Assembly (NCBI GenBank): GCA_012026655.1
Contig: JAAILG010001201.1
Span: 1 to 64,000, forward strand
Source: Hydrolagus affinis
Lineage: Eukaryota
DNA length: 64,000 nt
Reading direction: 5' to 3'
Shown here: positions 7,797 through 59,975 of the stretch, one piece after another
Position numbering within the stretch: the first letter of the stretch is position 1
Layout of the letters: every line of letters starts with the position of its first letter
The notes under the pieces: model-generated
The model's database searches: none
Seen by the model: the letters and a program-made list of their open reading frames with translations, nothing else
Told to the model about the DNA's origin: nothing
Made by a program: the position numbers and the translations under genes

Positions 7797-8312
7797 TGTA
7801 TATAATATATAACCTTTGGGTAAAATAAAGTATAAATATAATCACCCCACAGTTTGCAAGCATAATGATGGGGACATTTAATCGGAAACCAAGTTCCTCA
7901 GGATTGAACTAAAATGCTGCCTGCCATTCTCGATTATTGCATGGACAGGTGTGAGGATAGGAGAGGGTTGGGAAAAGGAAAAATGTTATACATTAAGAAA
8001 GGCCTGCACCAAGATACTTGTATATCTGAATAAGCCTGACTCTGAACAACAGTGGATAGCCATGAACCATTTGTTATGTGATCTCTGTTTAGTGTCCTTT
8101 CAATCTTTCTCTTCACCCCATCTCCATATGTGATCTAGTTTCTTTAAAAAGCCAAAATCATATGAGGCCACAATATGATCGACCTTCTTCCAATTGTGGG
8201 GACCTGGGACCAACTAGTAAAACGAATGTTTTTCCACTGACTTGAGGAACAAAGCTGGGAAAGAAAACATCCCAAATAAAAGGGGAAAAAGTGCTAATGA
8301 TCAACATGTATT

Positions 8313-8555
8313 ACAACAACAACAACAACAAAATTACATTTGAAGAGCGCCTTTCACATCGGGAGGACGTCCCAAAGCATTGAACAGTCAGGGGTCAGGG
8401 GTGTTTAGGGGATGAGTGGGGGTTCAGTGTTAGAATGAAGGAGAGCAGAGAGGTAGGAGGGAGGCACGGTCAAAAAGTGGGGCGGTTTTGAGACTGGCCT
8501 TAAAGTAGGCAAGGGAGGAGCAAGGCGAAGGGATTGTGGGATGGAGTTCTAAAGT
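8313..8555 (-). mobile_element. L2 LINE 3' end
   Basis: (CAA)n tail followed by aaattacatttg..agcgcctttcacatcgggaggacgtcccaa, a motif recurring many times in the window. Confidence 0.75.
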
Positions 8556-8796
8556 GAGACTTGTCTGTCACATGCTAACACAAATGGAAGAATTCATACC
8601 CATAATTGCTGTGAGCTTGATTGTAAGTGATGCTTTCCTCTGAGTCAGAAGTTTGTGGGTCCAAGCTCCATGTAAGGATGTAAGATCATAATTGATACTT
8701 CAGGGTAGTGATGGGGGAGGATTATGATTGTGAAACTGCAAGGATTATTGTTATTATAGATTATAAATCTTTCTGTCTACCTGTTATATGGGAATT

Positions 8797-9107
8797 AATA
8801 ATAATCCTTGCATTTGATGTAGTGCTTTTCACATTTCTAGACGTCTCAAAGCACTTCACAGAATATACTATAAAATGAATTAACTGTATATTTGTGAGCA
8901 AAATGTGGCAGCCAGTTGCGCACAGCAGTGTCCCACAAACAATTGTGGATTGAAATGACCAATTTTATTATTGTGGTTTTTTTTGAGGGATTATTATGAG
9001 TGTGGAGTAAGGAAACTTGCCCAAGGTTTCGCCCTGACCTGCCTGGATTCGAAACACAGGTCTCACACTTGTAAGCTAGTGCTCTAACCACTGAGCTACA
9101 GGACTCC
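8797..9107 (-). mobile_element. tRNA-derived SINE, full length
   Basis: Reverse complement of the family, ending ...gctctaaccactgagctacaggactcc. Confidence 0.9.
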
Positions 9108-9110
9108 ACC

Positions 9111-9370
9111 ACGAGATGTCTCAAAGCGCTTCATAGGATATACTGTAAAGTGGATTGAGTGTGTACAGTGGAGTAAAACGTGGCAGCAAATTGCACCATC
9201 AATGTCCCACAAACAGCCATGGAGTGAGTGACCAATGTTATTTGGGGGATTTTTGGCTAGGATACCTGGAGAATCTCCCTTCTAATTATGAATAGTGCCA
9301 TCCATGGGATCTTTAGCATCCACTAAAAAAGACAGATGGGAGTTCAATTTACCATTTTATCTGAAGGATG
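9111..9370 (-). mobile_element. Older Deu-domain-like SINE fragment
   Basis: Shared 3' tail plus the aatagtgccat..gggatcttt central block on the reverse strand. Confidence 0.6.
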
Positions 9371-9655
9371 AAAATAGAACAATACAAGTATATTGAATGT
9401 TTAGTATTCAATATACCGGTATTGAATGTTTAGTATCACACAGTATTCAGTCTATGACATACATAGTCTCTCCCTTGCTCTAGTTTTCCTGTAAATTGAA
9501 TCTCTCAGACTGTGAAGTTTGGGAAGGGCTGAGTACTTAACTGATGCAATGTCACATTGGTAATGCTGGAAGGGAAATGGAATTCTTGAATGTAGTATTC
9601 ATTGTTCCTTCGATTTCACAAGATTTTCCCCAGTCATAGATCTATTAATCAATGT

Positions 9656-10125
9656 AATAATAATAATAATCCTTGCATTTGAAATAACGCTTTTCACCCC
9701 AAAGTGCTTCACAGAATATACTGTAAATATACAGAATATAACTGTAAATTTGTGGGCGAATCGCGGCAGCCAATTATGCACAGCAGTGTTCTACAAACAG
9801 TCATGGATTGAAATTACCAATTTTATTATTGTGGGGCAAAACACAAAATACTACAGATGCTGGGAATCTGAAACAAAAACAAAAGTTGCTGGGGAAACTC
9901 AGCAGGTCAGGCAGCATCCATGGAGAAAGGAAAAAGAGTCAACGTTTCAGGTCTACAACCCTTCGTCAGAAGGGTTCTTCGTTCTGACGAAGGGTTGTAG
10001 ACCCGAAACATTGACTCTTTTTCCTGTCTCCATGAATGCTGCCTGACTTGCTGAGTTTCCCCAGCAACTTTTGCTTTTGTTTATTATTGTGAGGGTTTTT
10101 TTTGGACGGATTATTATTAGGCATG
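9656..10125 (-). mobile_element. tRNA-SINE family copy, 5'-truncated and split by an insertion
   Basis: The family body runs to ttttattattgtg (9833) and resumes at 10080-10125 (ggattattattaggcatg). Confidence 0.8.
9834..10079. mobile_element. Inverted-repeat Penelope-like retroelement remnant with hammerhead-like cores
   Basis: Arms 9871-9971 and 9982-10082 are inverted with 6 mismatches in ~101 bp. Each has CTGACGA-stem-GAAA. The insertion is flanked by a TTTATTATTGTG duplication (9822-9833, 10080-10091). Confidence 0.75.
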
Positions 10126-10317
10126 TAAATGAATGATGCAGTATTGCCAGGGTTGACAATGTGTAGATCAGCAGCAGCAACAGCATATATTAATACAATC
10201 AGTAGCAAGTCCTAAAATGTAATAGTATGGAATGGTATGTGAAACACACCTAGTCACAAACCTTAGTGTCTGGAGAGTTATTGTTCAGAAAATTTCAAAA
10301 ACAAACTTCTTATTATA

Positions 10318-10495
10318 CAGTGAAGTCCTGATAATCCGATCCTGTCTTGAGTTGTCACTACCGCTTAAATCACCATGCTGTCAATATCACCATAACATTT
10401 ATTTATGTATTTATACATATGCCTAACTCACCAATCTGGATAACTCATCATTGAGTCCTTTTTCCTTGAATCGACAATTTATCAGCAGTTTACTG
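10318..10495. mobile_element. Degenerate Tc1/mariner-type MITE
   Basis: TA|CAGTGAAGTCCTGATAA ... TTATCAGCAGTTTACTG|TA, imperfect TIRs with TA flanks. Confidence 0.5.
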
Positions 10496-11124
10496 TAATT
10501 AATTAATAATCCTAAATCAATATATAGATTGTATCGTTTGACAATGTAAGGATTGAAGCATTCACTTCGTAATATTCAGATGTAAGTTAAGTTCTGTGTT
10601 GTATTTAAATGTTAGTGTAAATTTAGATGTTATACCAATTTAAAAGAGGTGCATTAGTTTTTAATCCTAAATACAAGGTGAGGAAACCCAACAACAAATC
10701 TTAATCTACAGCAAGAATGCTATCTGATGAATGAGTAATACTGCAATATTGGTATGGGAATTTACACAACTGTTTCTTGGCCATTTGCCCAGTATATGGA
10801 AAGATGTGTGGGGCATAGTGTCTGTAATGGAGGAAGAACAAAATCGAAAAAACGTGGGAGAACAGCCACTGTCATCTCTATGTTTAAACACGCCTACAAT
10901 GCAACAGTTCAAACATGTATAGCGATCAGCAATGATTCTGTTTCAGCATTAATTCCTGTAGGTACAGTGCGTATTCCAATAGATGGGTAAATTCCATTCT
11001 GCCCACAACAGTGACTGGTAATGGAAGGAAGAAGAATCTGATAGAAGACCAGTCATTTTACAGTACACTGATTCATATGTGAACATCACAAGTGTGAATC
11101 ACAATAATCATATGTATATAATAC

Positions 11125-11480
11125 TACTTGCATTTGATACATTGCCTCTAATGTTGCCAAGTTGTTTGCTGTAAGGTGTATTGACTGCATATTTGAAAGT
11201 AAATGTGCAAGCCATTTAGGTACAGCAATTATACTATAAGCAACAAAGTGAATAATCAATTTATCTGGACGATTGTTGCACAGGGCATCAGGAGAAATTC
11301 TCTTCTCTTTTGAAATTGTATCAGGGATCCTTATTGTTCACCTGAACAGGAAAACAGGATCTTGGTTTAACATCTTAAACATAAGATGACACTTCTGCCA
11401 ATGCCTTGTCTGTGAGATCAAAGTTCTGATATGGGGCTTGAACCCACAACCTTATAATCCAGATGCAAGAGTGTGACTGA
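11125..11480 (-). mobile_element. Old Deu-domain-like SINE, degenerate
   Basis: cttgcatttgata tail, gggatcctt..ttcacctgaacagg central block, and ggggcttgaacccacaacc (B-box on the reverse strand). Confidence 0.6.
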
Positions 11481-11845
11481 TTTTAAACCAGGTCAACTTC
11501 TCATACTATATATATATATATATATATAGACACTCATACACACACTTCATCCTTTGCACTTTGAATACTACAGCTTATTGTCTTTACACATCCCTTCACT
11601 TTGACATTATTCTGCTACATGTAGGCTACACCCTTAAGTAGTTGATTACTAGCCAAATGTATTCTGCACCAGTGATGTATTATTGTCATAATATAATGAC
11701 ATATGGTGATATGTGAATTCTATCCATTAGGGTAATCAAACAACAAATCTATTGTGATAAATCAACATAACATTTTAAGAACCGCTAGATAATGAGAACT
11801 ATTTTTATCTTAGTCAAATGTCCAGTAAAACTATTAATGTAAAAC

Positions 11846-11990
11846 TCAATCCACAACTGTTTGTGCACAATTGGCTGTCGCATTTCACCCACAAACATAC
11901 AGTCAATTAACTCTACATATTGTGTGAAGCATTCTGCGATGTCTAGAAGTTGTGAGAAGCACTATATCAAATGCAAGAATTATTATTATA
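11846..11990 (+). mobile_element. SINE 3' half
   Basis: caatccacaactgtttgtg...atcaaatgcaagaattattatta. Confidence 0.8.
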
Positions 11991-12314
11991 TGGGTGGAAC
12001 GTCAATAATCTGACACGGTTGGGACCAAGCCAACTCCCGGATTTTGGAGTTTGCCGGTATTTAGAATCCTATCCTGGCCTAAAATTGCGTGACTTTACCA
12101 ATGTTGTTTTATTTACCTGATATAGTTTTCATGTGTTATTTAACATGATTTATGGGTATAAATATATGAAGAAATAAGTGTTAAAAAAAAATGTAATTGT
12201 ACGGTTTTAGAATTTTTTTTACCTACGACAGGGCTAGCGTAACATGACCATAGGATCATGACCGGTTTTAGGGAGAGCCCGCTTTCAGATTGCCGGATTA
12301 TCAATGTTCTACTG
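11991..12314. mobile_element. Tc1/mariner (Tigger/pogo-like) MITE
   Basis: The right end GCCGGATTATCAATGTTCTACTG|TA mirrors the degenerate left end GTGGAACGTCAATAATCTGAC. Related to 7464-7796. Confidence 0.65.
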
Positions 12315-21675: not shown

Positions 21676-21972
21676 AATAATAATAATCATAATCCTTGCA
21701 TTTGATAGAATGTTTCTCACATCTTATTGATGTCTCAAAGCGCTTCATAGAATATACTGTAAAGTGAATTGACTGTATATTTGTGGGTGAAACGTGACAG
21801 CCAATTCCGCACAGCAGTGTCCCACAAACAATCATAGATTGAAAACGACTAATATTTATTATTGTGTTTTTTTGGGGGGGATTGATTATTATTAGGCGTG
21901 TGGAGTAAGGAAACTTGCTCAAGGTTTTGCTCTGATCTGTCTGGATTCGAACACGGGTCTCACGCTTGTAAG
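21676..21972 (-). mobile_element. tRNA-derived SINE
   Basis: Reverse family copy with B-box (ggattcgaac), truncated before the A-box. Confidence 0.88.
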
Positions 21973-22002
21973 AAATGGTTGTTTCACAAATTTATTAGAA
22001 TA

Positions 22003-22290
22003 AATAATAATCCTTACATTTGATATAGCGCTTTTCACATTCTAGACATCTCAGAGTACATTATAAAGTAAATTGTATATTTGTGGGTGAAACATGGCAG
22101 TCAATTGCGCACAGCAGTGTCCCACAAAGAGTTGTAGATTGAGTGACCAATTTATTCTTATTTTTTCTTGAGGGATTATTATCAGGCATGTGGAGTAAGG
22201 AAACTTTCCCAAGGTTTCACCCTGCCGGGAATCAAATCCGGGTCTCGTGTTTTCAAGGCGAGTGCTCTAACCACTGAGCTACAGGACTCC
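22003..22290 (-). mobile_element. tRNA-derived SINE, full length
   Basis: Reverse family copy ending gctctaaccactgagctacaggactcc. Confidence 0.9.
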
Positions 22291-23909
22291 TCAGTATTGG
22301 GTGGGGTAGGATCAAGTATAATCCTTCCGTACTGGTGTAAGAATATAACTTTGGAGAAAGTTAATCTTTAAATTCAAATTACTTCCAAATCCAAGACTCG
22401 AGCGACCTTCGCTCTAAATTGAGGACTTTTGCGACTTTATCAAAGAGGCAAAAACTACCTTTGTCTTTTTTCTTAAAACATAAAAAAAAATTGGGAAAAA
22501 GAGAAAAGGCAAGTTACATGAAAGTGCTACAGATCAAAGAGAAGTCCTCAACACAGAGGGATCTTTATTAGACAGAGGTCGCATTCACATCGTCAGACTC
22601 TGGGTGACTTATCAAAGTGGTGATCTGAATAAGTAGTATTGTCAACTCTCAACTGCAGCCACAGCTGTGGTCCAAGGTTTTGTAGATATCCATCCATTGG
22701 ATTTTTGTATTTATCTGGGGGATAAGTTAGAGAGTAGCCAACGCCAAACAATCTGCCTTTCTCAATATAGCTAATGAAAGACGTAATGGATTTTCGTGTG
22801 CAGTAAAATCCCACATCAGTCCAGTTGAGTTGAAACTTGCAGCAGAGGAAGTCTGTGGGCGGCTGGGCTGTAAAGTGGAGAGAGCGCGTCACTGCAACAC
22901 GTGGAAACATTGTCAGTTTCTCACCAGAAATGGAGAATTTTACGTTTCTTCTGATAATAAGACTTTCCACTCCTTTGGGATAAGTAGTTGGTAAATAATC
23001 GGGGTGGTGGTGGTGGTGGGGGGGGGGCGGGGTTAAATGACTTTTAAGATCTGATCTGTTGATTTGTTTATATATACTGTATTATAATAATATATATTTT
23101 TAAAATATTTTTTTTAAAAGGGTACACTTCAGATCGTTTAATAAGTAATTCATGCAAATTGAAACGAAGCCATAAACTTATCCAAGTGTCAAGTCTAAAA
23201 TGATAAGTGATCTAGCCATCGCTTAACTTTTGATCTCTTTCGGTCCCTTTTCAACTTTTTTTTTGGGTGGGAGTGGGGAGGGAGTCAGAAAACAAATGTT
23301 CTTCGCATTTTACTGAACATCATACGTGAGTTGTGTAATTTGACTTGATAGATTGCTAAATCTGTGCCTTGGCTGCCTTGGAGGTAAACACACCCAGAAG
23401 AACAATTGCTTTGGTCACACATTTTTTTTGAAAATATATATATATTCCCCTCCCCCCCACCCCACCAACACCCCCCACCCCCCAAAAAAGAATGATGTGG
23501 CAATCTTTCTCAGAACGATGTGATGTGTACAGTGTGTGTGTGTGTGTGGGGGTGGGGGGGTGAAAGTTAATAAGTTAATTGAATGGAGAAAGTCTAAATA
23601 ACTCATCAGATTTTCAGTGAACTCACTGGATTACAAAGAAACAAGTTTCCTTATTGCCTGATCAGGCTGCCTGAAACACTGTATACACAGGCAAGATCTT
23701 TCACAGATTTTCTTGTGTGTTTTTTCTAGCCTGGTGTCTTGAGTGGTGCCTTTGCACTGCCTGCAGTGACATCTACAGTGAATGCCATTTCAGTTAAGCG
23801 GTTTTTTGATAGTATATTTAGATTCTAACGTGACAGTGGTTAGAGAGGCATTCTACTGAGTTCTAGAGGGGAAAAAATGCGAGAGGAACCAACTACAAAT
23901 CACTTTCGT

Positions 23910-29600: not shown

Positions 29601-30069
29601 GGTCGGAAATTCTCAAGCGTTGGTTTCCACTGGTTGTTCAGAACACTGAAGGTGTCAGACCGATGGGGGGCGCCGGGCCGAGCGTGTAACGAAAGAGGAA
29701 GAGGATACTGTCTGTGTGTTATATATATATATATGAAAGAGAATGAAAGAGAAGGGAAAATGGAAACATAGAGAGGAAAATGTAAAACTCAGAAATACAT
29801 AGGAGCAAAAGAGAATATCCAGAAGAAGCAAAAGGAATTAGGAGAGAAAACTAGAGGGTTCAAATCAATCAGAGGCATTTGGAGAAAGCACAGAGGGAAG
29901 AAAGATCACAGAGAGTGAGCATGAAAGAGAGAATACGAGAGGTTAGACTTGGTGAAAGAGGGGGAGGGGGGAGTGAACACAGAGAGGGTGAAAAGGTGAA
30001 TGCAGGGGTGAAGGACTTTCCAGAGTGAGGGAGTATTGGGGCTAAAAGGAGAGAAATGCATCTGACAGT

Positions 30070-30377
30070 GGAGCTCTGCGATTCAGCGGTTAGAGCACTC
30101 GCCTTACAAGCAAGATCCCTGGATTCGATTCCTGGCAGGGCGAGACCCTGGGCAAGTTTCATTTCCCCCGCACGCCTGATAATAATCCCTGAAAAAAAAA
30201 TGCTAATTTGGTCACTCAATCCACGCCTGTTTGTAGGACACTGCTGTGCGCAATTGGCTGCAGCGTTTCACCCACAAATGTGCGCCCAAATCACTTTACG
30301 GTATATTCTGTGGAGCGCGCTTTGAGGCACCTAGGAGATGTGAAAAGCATCATAACAAATGCGAGGATTATTATTAT
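30070..30377 (+). mobile_element. tRNA-derived SINE, full length, CpG-rich copy
   Basis: Family head, body and (TTA)n tail. Confidence 0.88.
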
Positions 30378-32948: not shown

Positions 32949-34250
<1,302 letters not shown>

Positions 34251-44562: not shown

Positions 44563-45321
44563 TCAGAGGGACACCGGGGGACCAGGGTAAGGCTCGGCAT
44601 CGCACCAGAAGTCGACAGGTTGCGGCACCTCCAGCAGCCAAACTTGGTGTGGCTGCCGCGCTGCTTCGCCCCCGTTCCCGGACACCTCCAGGACCTGGTA
44701 ATAGTGGCAGTCCCTCCCTTCAGCAGAGCAGTAAGGAGGCGCCAAAACGTCCAGGAAAGCGGCGGGCCCGTCCACGGCCTTGATCTCATGCAAGTTGTCC
44801 CGGTCGGGGCTCAGCACGCAGGTTCCGCTGGCCTCGCTGTACTCATGGCTGGAGCGCAGCACCGAGCCGCTGAGCGCCTCCCGCTGGCTCTGCAGGAGCG
44901 GGGGGCTGAACTCCACGCCGCCGGCCGCCGCCTCGCCTTTCTCCAGCCGGTCGAAGCACTGGATCTGCACTTTGCCGTAGATGACTTTGAGTAGGCCGTG
45001 CATACCCGGGTGGTCGTGCAGCGGGATGCAGGTGCCGCCGTCCAGCAGGAAGACCCCCATGCTGAAGCTCTCGGTCTCGGAGATGTGCATGTATGTGACC
45101 GGAGGGCGGCGCCGCCGCTGGCGGGGGGTGACGGACGGAGAGTCGGTGCCCCTCCTGGGCAGGATGTTCAGGTCCTCGGACCGCACCTCCCCCAGGAGGA
45201 TCTTCAGTTTGCTCAGGTTCTCGTGGAAGGTCACTCGGTCCACCAGAGAAACCGATTTGAACGTGGTGAAGGCCTGGTTGGCCACCTTCTGGATCAGAGA
45301 GGCCATGTTGTCCAGAGGCAT
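44563..45321 (-). CDS. ADO: 2-aminoethanethiol (cysteamine) dioxygenase, intronless
   Basis: Starts MPLDNMASLIQKVANQA (human MPRDNMASLIQRIARQA). Has cupin motifs PVTYMHI, PLHDHPGMHG, NLHEI, FLDVLAPPY and RDCHYY, and C-terminal EPYPGP. 252 aa; ATG at 45321. Confidence 0.96.
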   Translation of the reverse strand: MPLDNMASLIQKVANQAFTTFKSVSLVDRVTFHENLSKLKILLGEVRSEDLNILPRRGTDSPSVTPRQRRRRPPVTYMHISETESFSMGVFLLDGGTCIPLHDHPGMHGLLKVIYGKVQIQCFDRLEKGEAAAGGVEFSPPLLQSQREALSGSVLRSSHEYSEASGTCVLSPDRDNLHEIKAVDGPAAFLDVLAPPYCSAEGRDCHYYQVLEVSGNGGEAARQPHQVWLLEVPQPVDFWCDAEPYPGPPVSL

Positions 45322-45631
45322 CGTCCGCCTCCTCTCAACCAACCAACCAACCAACCAACACACACACTAACAACAAGAGCAACGCAACCCAAGGACACCC
45401 ACCCACACCCCCACCCACACACTCACATACAGCAACTCAGCACCCAGCTCATGGCGTTATTACTGTCTCGGGATAGAGGAGTAAGGGGGCGGGCTGTGGG
45501 TGGGTGAGTGTGTGTAACGATACCGAATTCCCACCCCCTCTCCACACTCCCCACCCCCTCGATCGTGCGAGCTCATTCACTATCCTCCTCTCCGCACGTC
45601 CGCAGCTTGGCTCTCCGCCGCTTGCCTCCAC

Positions 45632-56746: not shown

Positions 56747-57099
56747 GAATCCTGTAGTGCAGTGGTTAGAGCACTTGAGGCGTGGTTTTGATTCCCGGCA
56801 GGGCGAAACATTGGGCAAGTTTCTTTACTCCACACACTCATTTTTTTCTGAGCAATAAATAGGAACTCAGTTGGCTAGTCAATTGGCTGATCGCTTTTCT
56901 GGCGATAATAATCCCTGAAAAAAAGAATAATTGGTCACTGAATCCACAACTGTTTGTGGGACACTGCTGTGCGCAATTGGCTGCCACATTTTGCCCACAA
57001 ATGTACAGTCAATTTACTTTACAGTATATTTTATGAAGTGCTTTGAGACATCTAATAGTTGTGATAAGTGCTGTATCAAATGCAAGAATTATTATTATT
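56747..57099 (+). mobile_element. tRNA-derived SINE with ~65 bp internal insertion
   Basis: Family head, body and tail, with extra sequence at ~56840-56903. Confidence 0.88.
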
Positions 57100-57769
57100 T
57101 AAGGCCTTAACATGACTTTTGGGTCCCCCTGTATTTTCCCCTTGCTATACATTTACCTCTTGCTTTTTGCAAGTTGCATTTCAGGCTTTTAAATAGACTT
57201 ATTTTAAGTTGTTGGAAAGAAATTATTGGTTTTCATAACATGTTCAACATGATAATTATCATGTAATTCCCCCCTCCCCTATCTCTTAGTTGCACTGTGA
57301 GGCAAAGTGTACTGATAGTAATATAGATAACTGTGTAGGGAAAAATTCAAGAATCACAGTAGGGCAATAAATCATGAGAAATCTGTAAGTTTTCTCAGTC
57401 TCAGCAGAGTAACTTACTGCACAAGTAAGCTAACCTTTCCGTAAGTCTAACCTTTCCATTTCCCACATTAACCATCCTTATTAGCCCTTTGAGATTGGAA
57501 ATGTGTGTTGAATTATGGACAGTTTTATCCTTACACCCCTGGGGACTGAGATATGACTGTTCAAAATATAGGATCCTTGTAGAATTCAGAAAGGAAACAG
57601 TTGTTCATTCCATTAGTCATGCCTGGAGTCAAATCCAGGCCCATTGGTGAAAAGTCAAGATCTTTAACCATTGTGTTATTCAGTTTCCTTGACTGATTAG
57701 ATTTTCGAAAAAAATGTATCACGTTGTTTATGCACATATAATTTGGATTGTTTTTGACTTGCGCTTGAC

Positions 57770-58033: not shown

Positions 58034-59330
58034 TAAAGTTGGTACTGATTTCTCCTACCACAGGGACATGATCAAATAAGAGGAATTTGCAGTGTATCAG
58101 TTATTGGACTTGATTTGCTTTTCATTAGTGCGATCAAAAGTGTGCATATAGAGAAAGTAAAAGATAGCTTTTATTTTAATACCCACTTTAGTGTCTTCCA
58201 ATAGTACTTAGTCATTTACTGTAGCACTATGCACTGTACAGTGTCACTTTTTAAAAAATATATAAAAACACGTTTTTCGACAAGTTATCAAAAGACATGT
58301 TTCTTTTACTTGAAAGCTTTTCACACTTGACTTGTAAAGCGAAACTCTATTTTTACGGTTTTAAAAATTGTCACCTTTCATTCATCAATCATGTCACAAA
58401 AGATATTGATTCACAGAGTTTACACCTTGTATATTTGTTGTTTGTTTGAAATTTGAAGCGAGCACAGTAAGATATTCTGTGGTTTGTAAACATGAACACA
58501 ATTAATACATTTGATCAGTCAAGAAAATGGAAGATGGACATGTCTTGAGATTCAGGTTTATGCTGAGCTCGATAGAAAGTAATTGCATGTCACTTTTCAC
58601 CAAGGTTGAGAAGTTGTGCTTTCTTTTTAATGCTAAGTAGCTTAATTGGTATGATAATTTCCCCTTGTAGCTGGGAACTGTCCCTGTCGCCTGAGTTAAA
58701 GTTCCTGAAGGTAGTTAGACATCAAGGATGGGACAGTGTGGAGAAGGGGCCCCTCAGGGGGTTTCTGCCTTTGTAATAAAAATGATTTATGAGACAGGAA
58801 CTCTGTTAGAAGCTGAGGAGTACATGACAGAGAGGATAATATGGGAGAAAACATCGTCTTCAAAACTGAGACTGATGGTGTTGTCCTGTCTGACTCTTAT
58901 TGTTATTTACGACGGCTGAAATGAGCCTTCTTACGAACAACTTCATTTAATGGCAGATTACATATGCTAAGATACAGTTTCCTCAGTGGTAGCTTTCCAT
59001 CTATGAGTCAGTTGTTGATGAGAATTAAGGGACTCATTGTGGGTTTGGCATTAATTTGGTTAGATTCCTTGTGTTTCCTAGATTTCATTGAGATGCAAGC
59101 AAGCACTATTTCTAACTCTGAATCAGCTTTTAAAAGTTAAAAAAATTATGAGCACAGTCAGAAATATTCACAATGTAATGAAGCTCACCAAGGTTGATTT
59201 ATTGTATACCATCAAACTATTAAATATGTGCAACAGACTTGTCAAATCCTTAATACTGTTAATTGAATCATTTAATATAGAAGTAGATGCATAGCTGGTT
59301 ATGAAAGTGACTGAGGTTTATAAAGATTGT

Positions 59331-59650
59331 GGAGCTCCTGTAGCTCAGTGGTTGGATCACTTGCCTTGCAAGCGTGAGACCTGTGGTCGAATCCAGGCAG
59401 ATCAGGGCGAAACCTTGGGCAAGTTTCCTTATTCCACAGGCCTAATAATAATCCGTCCAAAAAAACCACAATAATAAAAATTGGTCATTTTCAATCCACG
59501 TCTGTTTGTGGGACAATGTTGTGCGCAATTGGATGTCGCATTCGCCCACAAATATACAGTCAATTCACTTTACAATATATTCCGTGAAGGGCTTTGGACA
59601 TTGATAAGATGTGAAAAGCTCAAATGCAACGATTATTATATTATTATTAT
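59331..59650 (+). mobile_element. tRNA-derived SINE, full length
   Basis: ggagctcctgtagctcagtgg head, family body, (TTA)n tail. Confidence 0.9.
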
Positions 59651-59975
59651 AACAACAATAATGTTACATTTAAAGTTGGGGTGACGTCCCAAGGTGCAGG
59701 ACTATCAGGGATTTGCACTCAAGCTGGGATCGGAATCAAGAGCGGTGGAAGGCAAGAGTGGCGGAGCTGGGAGGATGATCAAAAGCACAGGCAAAAAGCA
59801 CATGTCTTAAGACATGCCTTGAAGGAGTCAAAGGAGCGGGCAAGGTGATGGGACTCCAGGATGGAGTTCTAGAGGGTGTGGCAGAAAGGTTAAAGGCTCG
59901 ACCACCAATGGTGGGGAGGGCCGGGTGGGGCATATGGAGCAGGCCACTGCCTGCCGAGCAGATGGAGCGGCAGGT
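59651..59975 (-). mobile_element. L2 LINE 3' fragment
   Basis: Tail motif. The minus-strand translation PTIGGRAFNLSA resembles L2 GxRAFSxxAP. Confidence 0.75.

Follow-up and report, generated by a model that had tools for sequence, protein, structure and literature searches.

In the genome of Hydrolagus affinis, one SINE copy is interrupted by a palindrome whose two arms each carry a hammerhead-type motif, raising the question of whether such an inverted dimer moves as a unit or is built anew at each insertion. We analyzed the locus within a window of 64,000 nucleotides (the whole stretch of DNA under study, positions 1 to 64,000 of contig JAAILG010001201.1, assembly GCA_012026655.1) and compared it with related copies in the 1.11-Gb genome. 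Our preferred reading, to which we assign a probability of roughly 0.8, is that the insert is a 5′-truncated insertion of a Penelope-like element (PLE), consisting of two head-to-head copies of its terminal repeat (pLTR) that were likely reverse-transcribed separately from two cut target strands and joined, and that it is probably inert.

The insert and its target site

Alignment bears out the layout given in an initial annotation made from the sequence alone, namely a ~245 bp insertion splitting a SINE, a 12-bp flanking duplication, and ~101-bp inverted arms with six mismatches and a 10-nt spacer. Each arm (9871-9971 and 9982-10082) is 101 nt long, and the two are 94% complementary and 10 nt apart. 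The duplication is exact over 12 nt (9822-9833 and 10080-10091) and extends to 15 nt with one mismatch (9822-9836 and 10080-10094). Flanks joined across the insertion site align to all three sibling SINE copies tested, with 3-4 extra nucleotides. The insert probably spans 9837-10079 with a 15-nt target-site duplication (TSD), because most related copies begin at the base matching 9837. The two arms proposed stand, but the unit is asymmetric: the left arm alone has ~34 extra nucleotides (9837-9870) that were overlooked earlier. In the features below, q positions count from the tail end of a longer copy, L181, with the first C of the core at q133 and the predicted cut at q105/104.

9655-9833, − strand: host SINE fragment, left part (blastn to sibling copies within the window)
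9822-9836, unstranded: left TSD, within the host SINE (12 nt exact, 15 with one mismatch)
9837-9870, − strand: PLE 'tail', a ~34-nt 3′ extension of the left arm only (inverted arms start at q29-q54 in 50/54; 35-mer matches; PMC8557442)
9837-9971, − strand: tailed pLTR arm, − being the element sense strand; 5′-truncated at q135, with two bases left ahead of the CUGA core
9941-9969, − strand: candidate minimal hammerhead core, ACGU intact, predicted cut between 9941 and 9940 (by motif)
9972-9981, unstranded: copy-specific junction (sequence; local hairpins; between-copy variation)
9982-10082, + strand: inverted tailless pLTR arm, its final 3 nt overlapping the right TSD
9984-10012, + strand: candidate minimal hammerhead core, 5-bp stem II and 3-bp stem I (by motif)
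10080-10094, unstranded: right TSD, pairing with the left TSD at 9822-9836
10092-10126, − strand: host SINE fragment, right part (blastn to siblings; rejoined-flank alignment)
241-549, 2393-2732, 8792-9107, 21676-21972: host SINE copies in the window, first four
21992-22293, 30068-30377, 56760-57100, 59328-59652: host SINE copies in the window, other four

The hairpin of both arms folds at −182.8 kcal/mol (z −23.4; 0/200 shuffles fold equally well), which agrees with the ~100 bp of double-stranded RNA anticipated for it. Within the spacer, 9972-9976 complements 9957-9961, and we infer that the junction 9972-9981 comprises short fold-back additions from the arm ends. The boundary between arm and tail (9877-9872, − strand; also in L181) is a pyrimidine-rich stretch ending in CAG that resembles a splice acceptor on the sense strand.

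Eight or more other copies of the ~300-bp host SINE are spread through the window (72-86% identical); one sibling (8796-9107) has a sub-threshold tRNA-like head at 9034-9105 on the − strand in an Rfam scan. Elsewhere in the window are an EGR-type zinc-finger exon at 32949-34250 (+ strand; PF11928 plus three C2H2 fingers), which we take to be EGR2-like, and a PCO_ADO gene at 44563-45366 (− strand). The EGR exon has the insert on its 5′ side, ~23 kb away.

Hammerhead-type cores at the locus and in the family

Both arms contain CUGAnGA, GAAA and UH core elements with an extra base before stem II, at the positions first reported (+ 9984-10008; − 9969-9941), and by motif this is the minimal type I hammerhead layout with a palindromic ACGU that had been described, intact on the − arm and ACAU on the + arm. 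On the + strand CUGACGA occupies 9984-9990 and GAAA 10005-10008, and a CpG change at 10010, the G-to-A change already noticed in stem III, breaks the palindrome from ACGU to ACAU. In the − core stem II closes with a G·U pair after a CpG change at 9949, and stem I is just 2 bp because junction sequence replaced its 5′ strand; with 3 bp in the + core, stem I is short in both arms, as first noted. Two of the six arm mismatches are CpG changes inside the cores.

Searching 8000-12000 with Rfam models, as had been advised, gave no hammerhead match up to E=10; its hits (miRNA, tRNA and others) all fell below threshold, and the ribozyme is therefore called by motif and by comparison. The miRNA hits reflect the hairpin, and all are far below gathering scores. 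Single arms folded alone adopted no hammerhead fold, and their z-scores (−0.3 to −1.4) are not unusual.

Across the family, the core together with ACGU is kept in 30/81 arms spanning the core, and core positions are kept no better than the flanks (0.95 versus 0.96-0.98 in 150 family arms). A generic core pattern had 123 matches against 96 for the control; it is therefore no evidence by itself and served only to sample older subfamilies. For stem covariation, 20 of 30 loci with this pattern were aligned with the two window arms, leaving out seven apparently unrelated matches, L193 and L199 (which have longer cores) and L203. In these 22 rows 85.4% of cells are paired, with seven double changes (2/500 shuffles as high). 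A single G-C to A-U swap, which was probably inherited once, makes up five of the seven, and the −1 slide likewise yields seven double changes, at 48% paired. Covariation support for the putative hammerhead stems is modest.

Cleavage at this locus is unlikely, because the predicted cores are on opposite strands, both are damaged, and the ~100-bp hairpin would bury them. Each transcript carries one sense core and therefore no in-cis dimer. The suggestion that activity may have been lost is supported, such loss being probable. Minimal PLE hammerheads are described as having low activity even as dimers (PMC4209133); for dimer cleavage see Lunse et al., as cited in PMC6765202, and for further background PMC6155905.

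A different repeat, at L202:1501-1532 and L212:1501-1532 (both − strand), carries a CUGAGGA...GAAACGUC motif unrelated to the insert's pLTR. It is possibly a second hammerhead-like family, or chance.

The parent Penelope-like element

Walking outward from a longer copy identified the insert arm, on sequence grounds, as the pLTR of a ~3-kb PLE in this genome encoding a reverse transcriptase (RT) and a GIY-YIG nuclease. In one of the loci so reached, L181, the arm (q1-140) lies ~290 nt 3′ of the ORF end and a partial pLTR, a 75-nt remnant at q3072-3146, lies 5′ of the ORF; the two are ~3.07 kb apart and bound a frameshifted element of ~3.07 kb. A PLE origin had been proposed at first, with a check for arms adjoining RT/GIY-YIG ORFs elsewhere in the genome; L181 supports the former and is an instance of the latter. 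In L181/L121, L087 and L125 the terminal repeat accompanies one ORF that encodes RT and, at its C-terminus, GIY-YIG; the copy in the window has no ORF. Tail or pLTR lies directly 5′ of the ORF in 21/30 N-terminal loci.

Translations of the parent ORF reveal an RT with YIDD, a CX4CxxC linker and a GIY-YIG/CCHH nuclease; Pfam returned RVT_1 (E 1.4e-6) and GIY-YIG (E 0.0028), both below cut-off. The parent protein has 2208 homologues at E<=1e-20, with named shark and ray proteins 58-64% identical, which points to a cartilaginous fish as the probable host, and a PDB sequence search with the RT piece gave 0 hits. The CX2-5CxxC linker, the CCHH in the nuclease and the DKG motif are all visible in the translations. 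Motifs defining the Neptune clade are given in PMC8557442, where the linker is common to Neptune and Nematis; by motif the parent is Neptune-like, or possibly a Nematis element.

In four contigs (L218, L220, L221 and L235) the same host flank follows the upstream pLTR, and they therefore represent one insertion later duplicated with its flank.

Family census

Searching the genome with the insert gave 3627 first-look candidates, of which the 40 scored were full-length units at 89-100% identity; 39 of these 40, all but the window's own, are the closest full units, at 89-94%. The tail-derived 35-mer 9840-9874 has 1189 exact genome matches and the family core pattern 1031, with 0 for the control in each case. 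Since the scored-unit search preselects hits of the same length, we also took a tail-anchored sample, namely the first 100 of the 1189 exact matches with one duplicate dropped, leaving 99. It covers the largest contigs (C1-C703), and as it demands an exact 35-mer it is confined to the young subfamily.

Among these 99 insertions, 45 have a single arm and 54 an inverted arm of variable length. The inverted arm starts at q29-54 in 50/54 and thus lacks the tail. Both arms end at q133-146, like the window's unit, in only 10/99. A TSD of at least 10 nt was found in 63/99 by a search run without a shuffled control, in which matches under about 8 nt may be chance. Of the 30 closest units, 25 have their own TSD of at least 11 nt, and 22 of the 26 junctions parsed are distinct, none occurring more than twice (two parses look faulty). 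In the 50 typical inverted copies the length of one arm does not correlate with that of the other (Spearman rho 0.23, p 0.11): the inverted arm extends 5′ by more than 10 nt beyond its partner in 21, the tailed arm does so in 14, and the two are within 10 nt in 15. Both arms of a copy fall in the end peak in 9/50, against 8.2 expected if independent. The arms of one copy agree at 250/313 polymorphic cells (0.80, versus 0.60 +/- 0.03 shuffled; 0/2000), specifically at 156/174 in non-CpG columns and 94/139 in CpG columns; neither the left nor the right arm has variants of its own.

As junctions differ, arm lengths are uncorrelated and arms share subfamily variants, the dimer was likely built at insertion: the palindrome would be remade each time from one source element, its arms then decaying separately. 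The notion of a non-autonomous unit moving as an inverted dimer is not supported, given the varied junctions, the uncorrelated lengths, the lack of side-specific variants and the 45/99 single-arm insertions. The structure does recur with its own TSDs, as was to be checked, yet it does not appear to move as a unit; the alternative originally posed, a family unit or a one-off, misses a third case in which the parent's insertion mechanism rebuilds the structure repeatedly. A separate observation concerns L064, where two insertions, G000:C283:53327 (+) and C283:61745 (−), face opposite ways at a distance of 8.4 kb and match exactly over their first 300 bases, either a recent inverted duplication or an assembly artefact.

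Arm ends cluster at the 5′ edge of the ribozyme

Arms end preferentially just beyond the core. Ends fall at q130-141 in 46/99 tailed and 26/54 inverted arms, compared with 3/99 and 3/54 in the bin around the predicted cut site (q101-108); the per-nucleotide stop rate is 0.107 at q130-141 versus 0.005 in the cut-site bin and 0.003-0.02 elsewhere. With so few ends near the cut site, a cleavage product as template is rejected, and arm ends appear not to be set by the predicted ribozyme cleavage. The preference is also present in older subfamilies (by eye).

The same edge recurs next to ORF N-termini. Of 30 loci with the ORF N-terminus, 16 have a join from pLTR to N-terminus, and 9/16 (8 independent) leave from q137-141, keeping AG and having no GT donor. 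In L214, L219, L224, L227, L229, L230 and L241, mini partial tandems run directly from the ribozyme 5′ edge into the N-terminal region of the ORF, consistent with template jumps. Among 17 independent upstream pLTRs, five reach q130, of which three end at q136-139 and two extend past q141. In another organism, reads fall about fourfold across q138/139 (one sample, one study), and raw reads of one sample show no end pile-up, the library type not being expected to show one; in run X1 the loose ends of contigs lie at q136-137. A cap-derived G was not apparent, a G preceding the q137 A in just 4/18 (p 0.66).

There are possible explanations for this hot spot. The CCAGTT at the ribozyme's 5′ edge resembles an initiator. 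Internal promoters of PLEs (PMC2377424) and an Inr-like PLE motif (PMC3846280) have been described. A template RNA whose 5′ end lies at q133-140 is the simplest reading, at about even odds, with the lack of a cap-derived G counting against it. A splice acceptor, an idea prompted by a D. virilis intron ending at helix I (PMC4209133), is disfavoured because the joins keep AG and lack a GT donor and no shared exon follows the ends (by eye).

Alternative explanations

Several other readings of the locus and of the hot spot can be set against these data. The inverted dimer could itself be a non-autonomous element, transcribed and re-inserted whole by the parent's protein. The 40 units scored are nearly full length at 89-100% identity, 25/30 have a TSD of their own, and in a rotifer PLE pLTRs are capable of acting in trans (PMC3846280). 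However, those hits were preselected for the same length, and the mere 10/99 of the tail-anchored sample with both arms ending at q133-146, the diversity of junctions and the lack of arm-specific alleles weigh against it; we regard this reading as largely refuted and very improbable. Another possibility, put forward for rotifer PLEs with an antisense template in the Discussion of PMC3846280, is that one arm arose by self-primed fold-back copying of its partner. Short fold-back additions at the window junction and at others, and subfamily variants common to both arms, fit such copying, although each arm often has pLTR sequence absent from the other (inverted longer in 21/50, tailed in 14/50) with uncorrelated lengths, and a single fold-back would require extra trimming in most copies. 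We consider it improbable, if less so than the dimer element.

The hot spot could also arise without any start site, if local structure or a bound protein makes RT stall or detach at q133-140 of a longer RNA, or if templates are short solo pLTRs. Consistent with this, ends are spread over ~8 nt with no cap-G, 16/99 tailed arms pass q141, and the stop rate rises already at q109-129, inside the ribozyme. Against it, the main stop lies just past the ribozyme stems, after RT has traversed them, template jumps depart from the same bases, and the edge is found in older subfamilies and in the reads and contigs of other organisms; we hold this explanation quite possible, if short of an even bet. The least credible proposal is that the locus is a selected functional RNA, whether active ribozyme, miRNA or siRNA hairpin. 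Its hairpin is very stable and another organism's poly(A) RNA contains the family, strand-switch joints included, but the damage to both cores, CpG changes among it, the single sense core per transcript, the absence of preferential core conservation and the weak miRNA scores all speak against function.

Proposed origin and comparison with known systems

Our preferred reading of a truncated two-armed PLE insertion has a firm part: the arms are pLTRs of an RT and GIY-YIG element, the tail is one-sided with the other arm beginning ~35 nt in, and each copy has its own TSD and junction. The two-strand scheme is modelled on PAc, a green anole PLE of the Poseidon clade, whose protein cuts both strands in vitro and extends each of them, and whose RT starts internally at two sites bracketing the tail, ribozyme cleavage being dispensable (PMC11167929). 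By analogy, the element protein would nick both target strands 10-16 nt apart. From one 3′-OH, RT would start at the tail end (q1), and from the other at ~q35, using RNA of the same source element, and both cDNAs would extend to about q133-140. The two free cDNA ends would then be joined with small deletions or fold-back additions, as at 9972-9981. Several points count against this scheme: two-strand priming is known in vitro from an element of another clade than the insert's presumed one; the ends are spread over q133-140 and not on one base; no cap-derived G was apparent; two of the 17 independent upstream pLTRs go beyond q141; and the closest full units do recur. Fold-back copying or gene conversion could likewise account for variants common to both arms. 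The insert family, known here from sequence, differs from PAc in its CX4CxxC linker, which is absent from Penelope/Poseidon (PMC8557442).

The head-to-head layout is already published, and the insert is an ordinary, heavily shortened PLE copy. Like EN+ PLE insertion units (Pen2a_Av in PMC3846280; PMC8557442), it combines head-to-head pLTRs, a one-armed tail, a TSD, a pLTR hammerhead and strong 5′ truncation, although it is truncated to the extreme with no ORF left. The one-sided tail is 30-40 bp in PLE insertions (PMC8557442, Fig. 2 legend), and other EN+ PLE traits are present as well, namely pLTRs in tandem around the ORF, an inverted 5′-truncated copy and a variable TSD (12-15 nt here). What sets the family apart from those units is that its arms share a sharp preferred 5′ end at the ribozyme edge, a preference not found in passages of PMC3846280 and PMC8557442. 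A literature search covering few subscription journals returned no paper on the insert's PLE family or on the 5′-edge hot spot.

Metazoan PLE hammerheads (PMC4209133) resemble the predicted cores in having a long helix II, a short helix I, an extra base before helix II and a palindromic 15.2-16.2. A remark on Schistosoma in that paper credits opposite-strand pairs '~100-700 bp apart' to truncated PLEs, whereas just ~15 nt separate the cores of the insert. Non-LTR retrozymes of animals (bioRxiv 10.64898/2026.07.22.740005) are likewise protein-free and PLE-derived with type I hammerheads, but form head-to-tail arrays in which two or more ribozymes lie on the same strand; the insert, arranged head to head with a single core on each strand, is rejected as a retrozyme.

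Implications

By itself the locus matters little, being one among more than 1000 decaying stumps. The family statistics have some bearing on the mechanism of PLE insertion. Drawn from the genome of a species with PLEs of a second clade, they favour independent synthesis of the arms, and they also support the view that ribozyme cleavage does not define template ends. More tentatively, and in our view less likely than not, the 5′ edge of the hammerhead may be the 5′ end of the element RNA, with a ~135-nt 'strong-stop'-like cDNA made per nicked strand by RT starting at the upstream repeat's two tail sites. If true, this would account at once for the prevalence of ribozyme-long stumps among genomic copies, for the palindromic form of about half, and for the departure of template jumps from that base. 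Should the stump carry an internal promoter of its own, solo pLTRs could also be mobilised again as a SINE that depends on the PLE. The sole part of wider value is the end pattern of the family, which points to a testable RNA 5′ end at the ribozyme edge.
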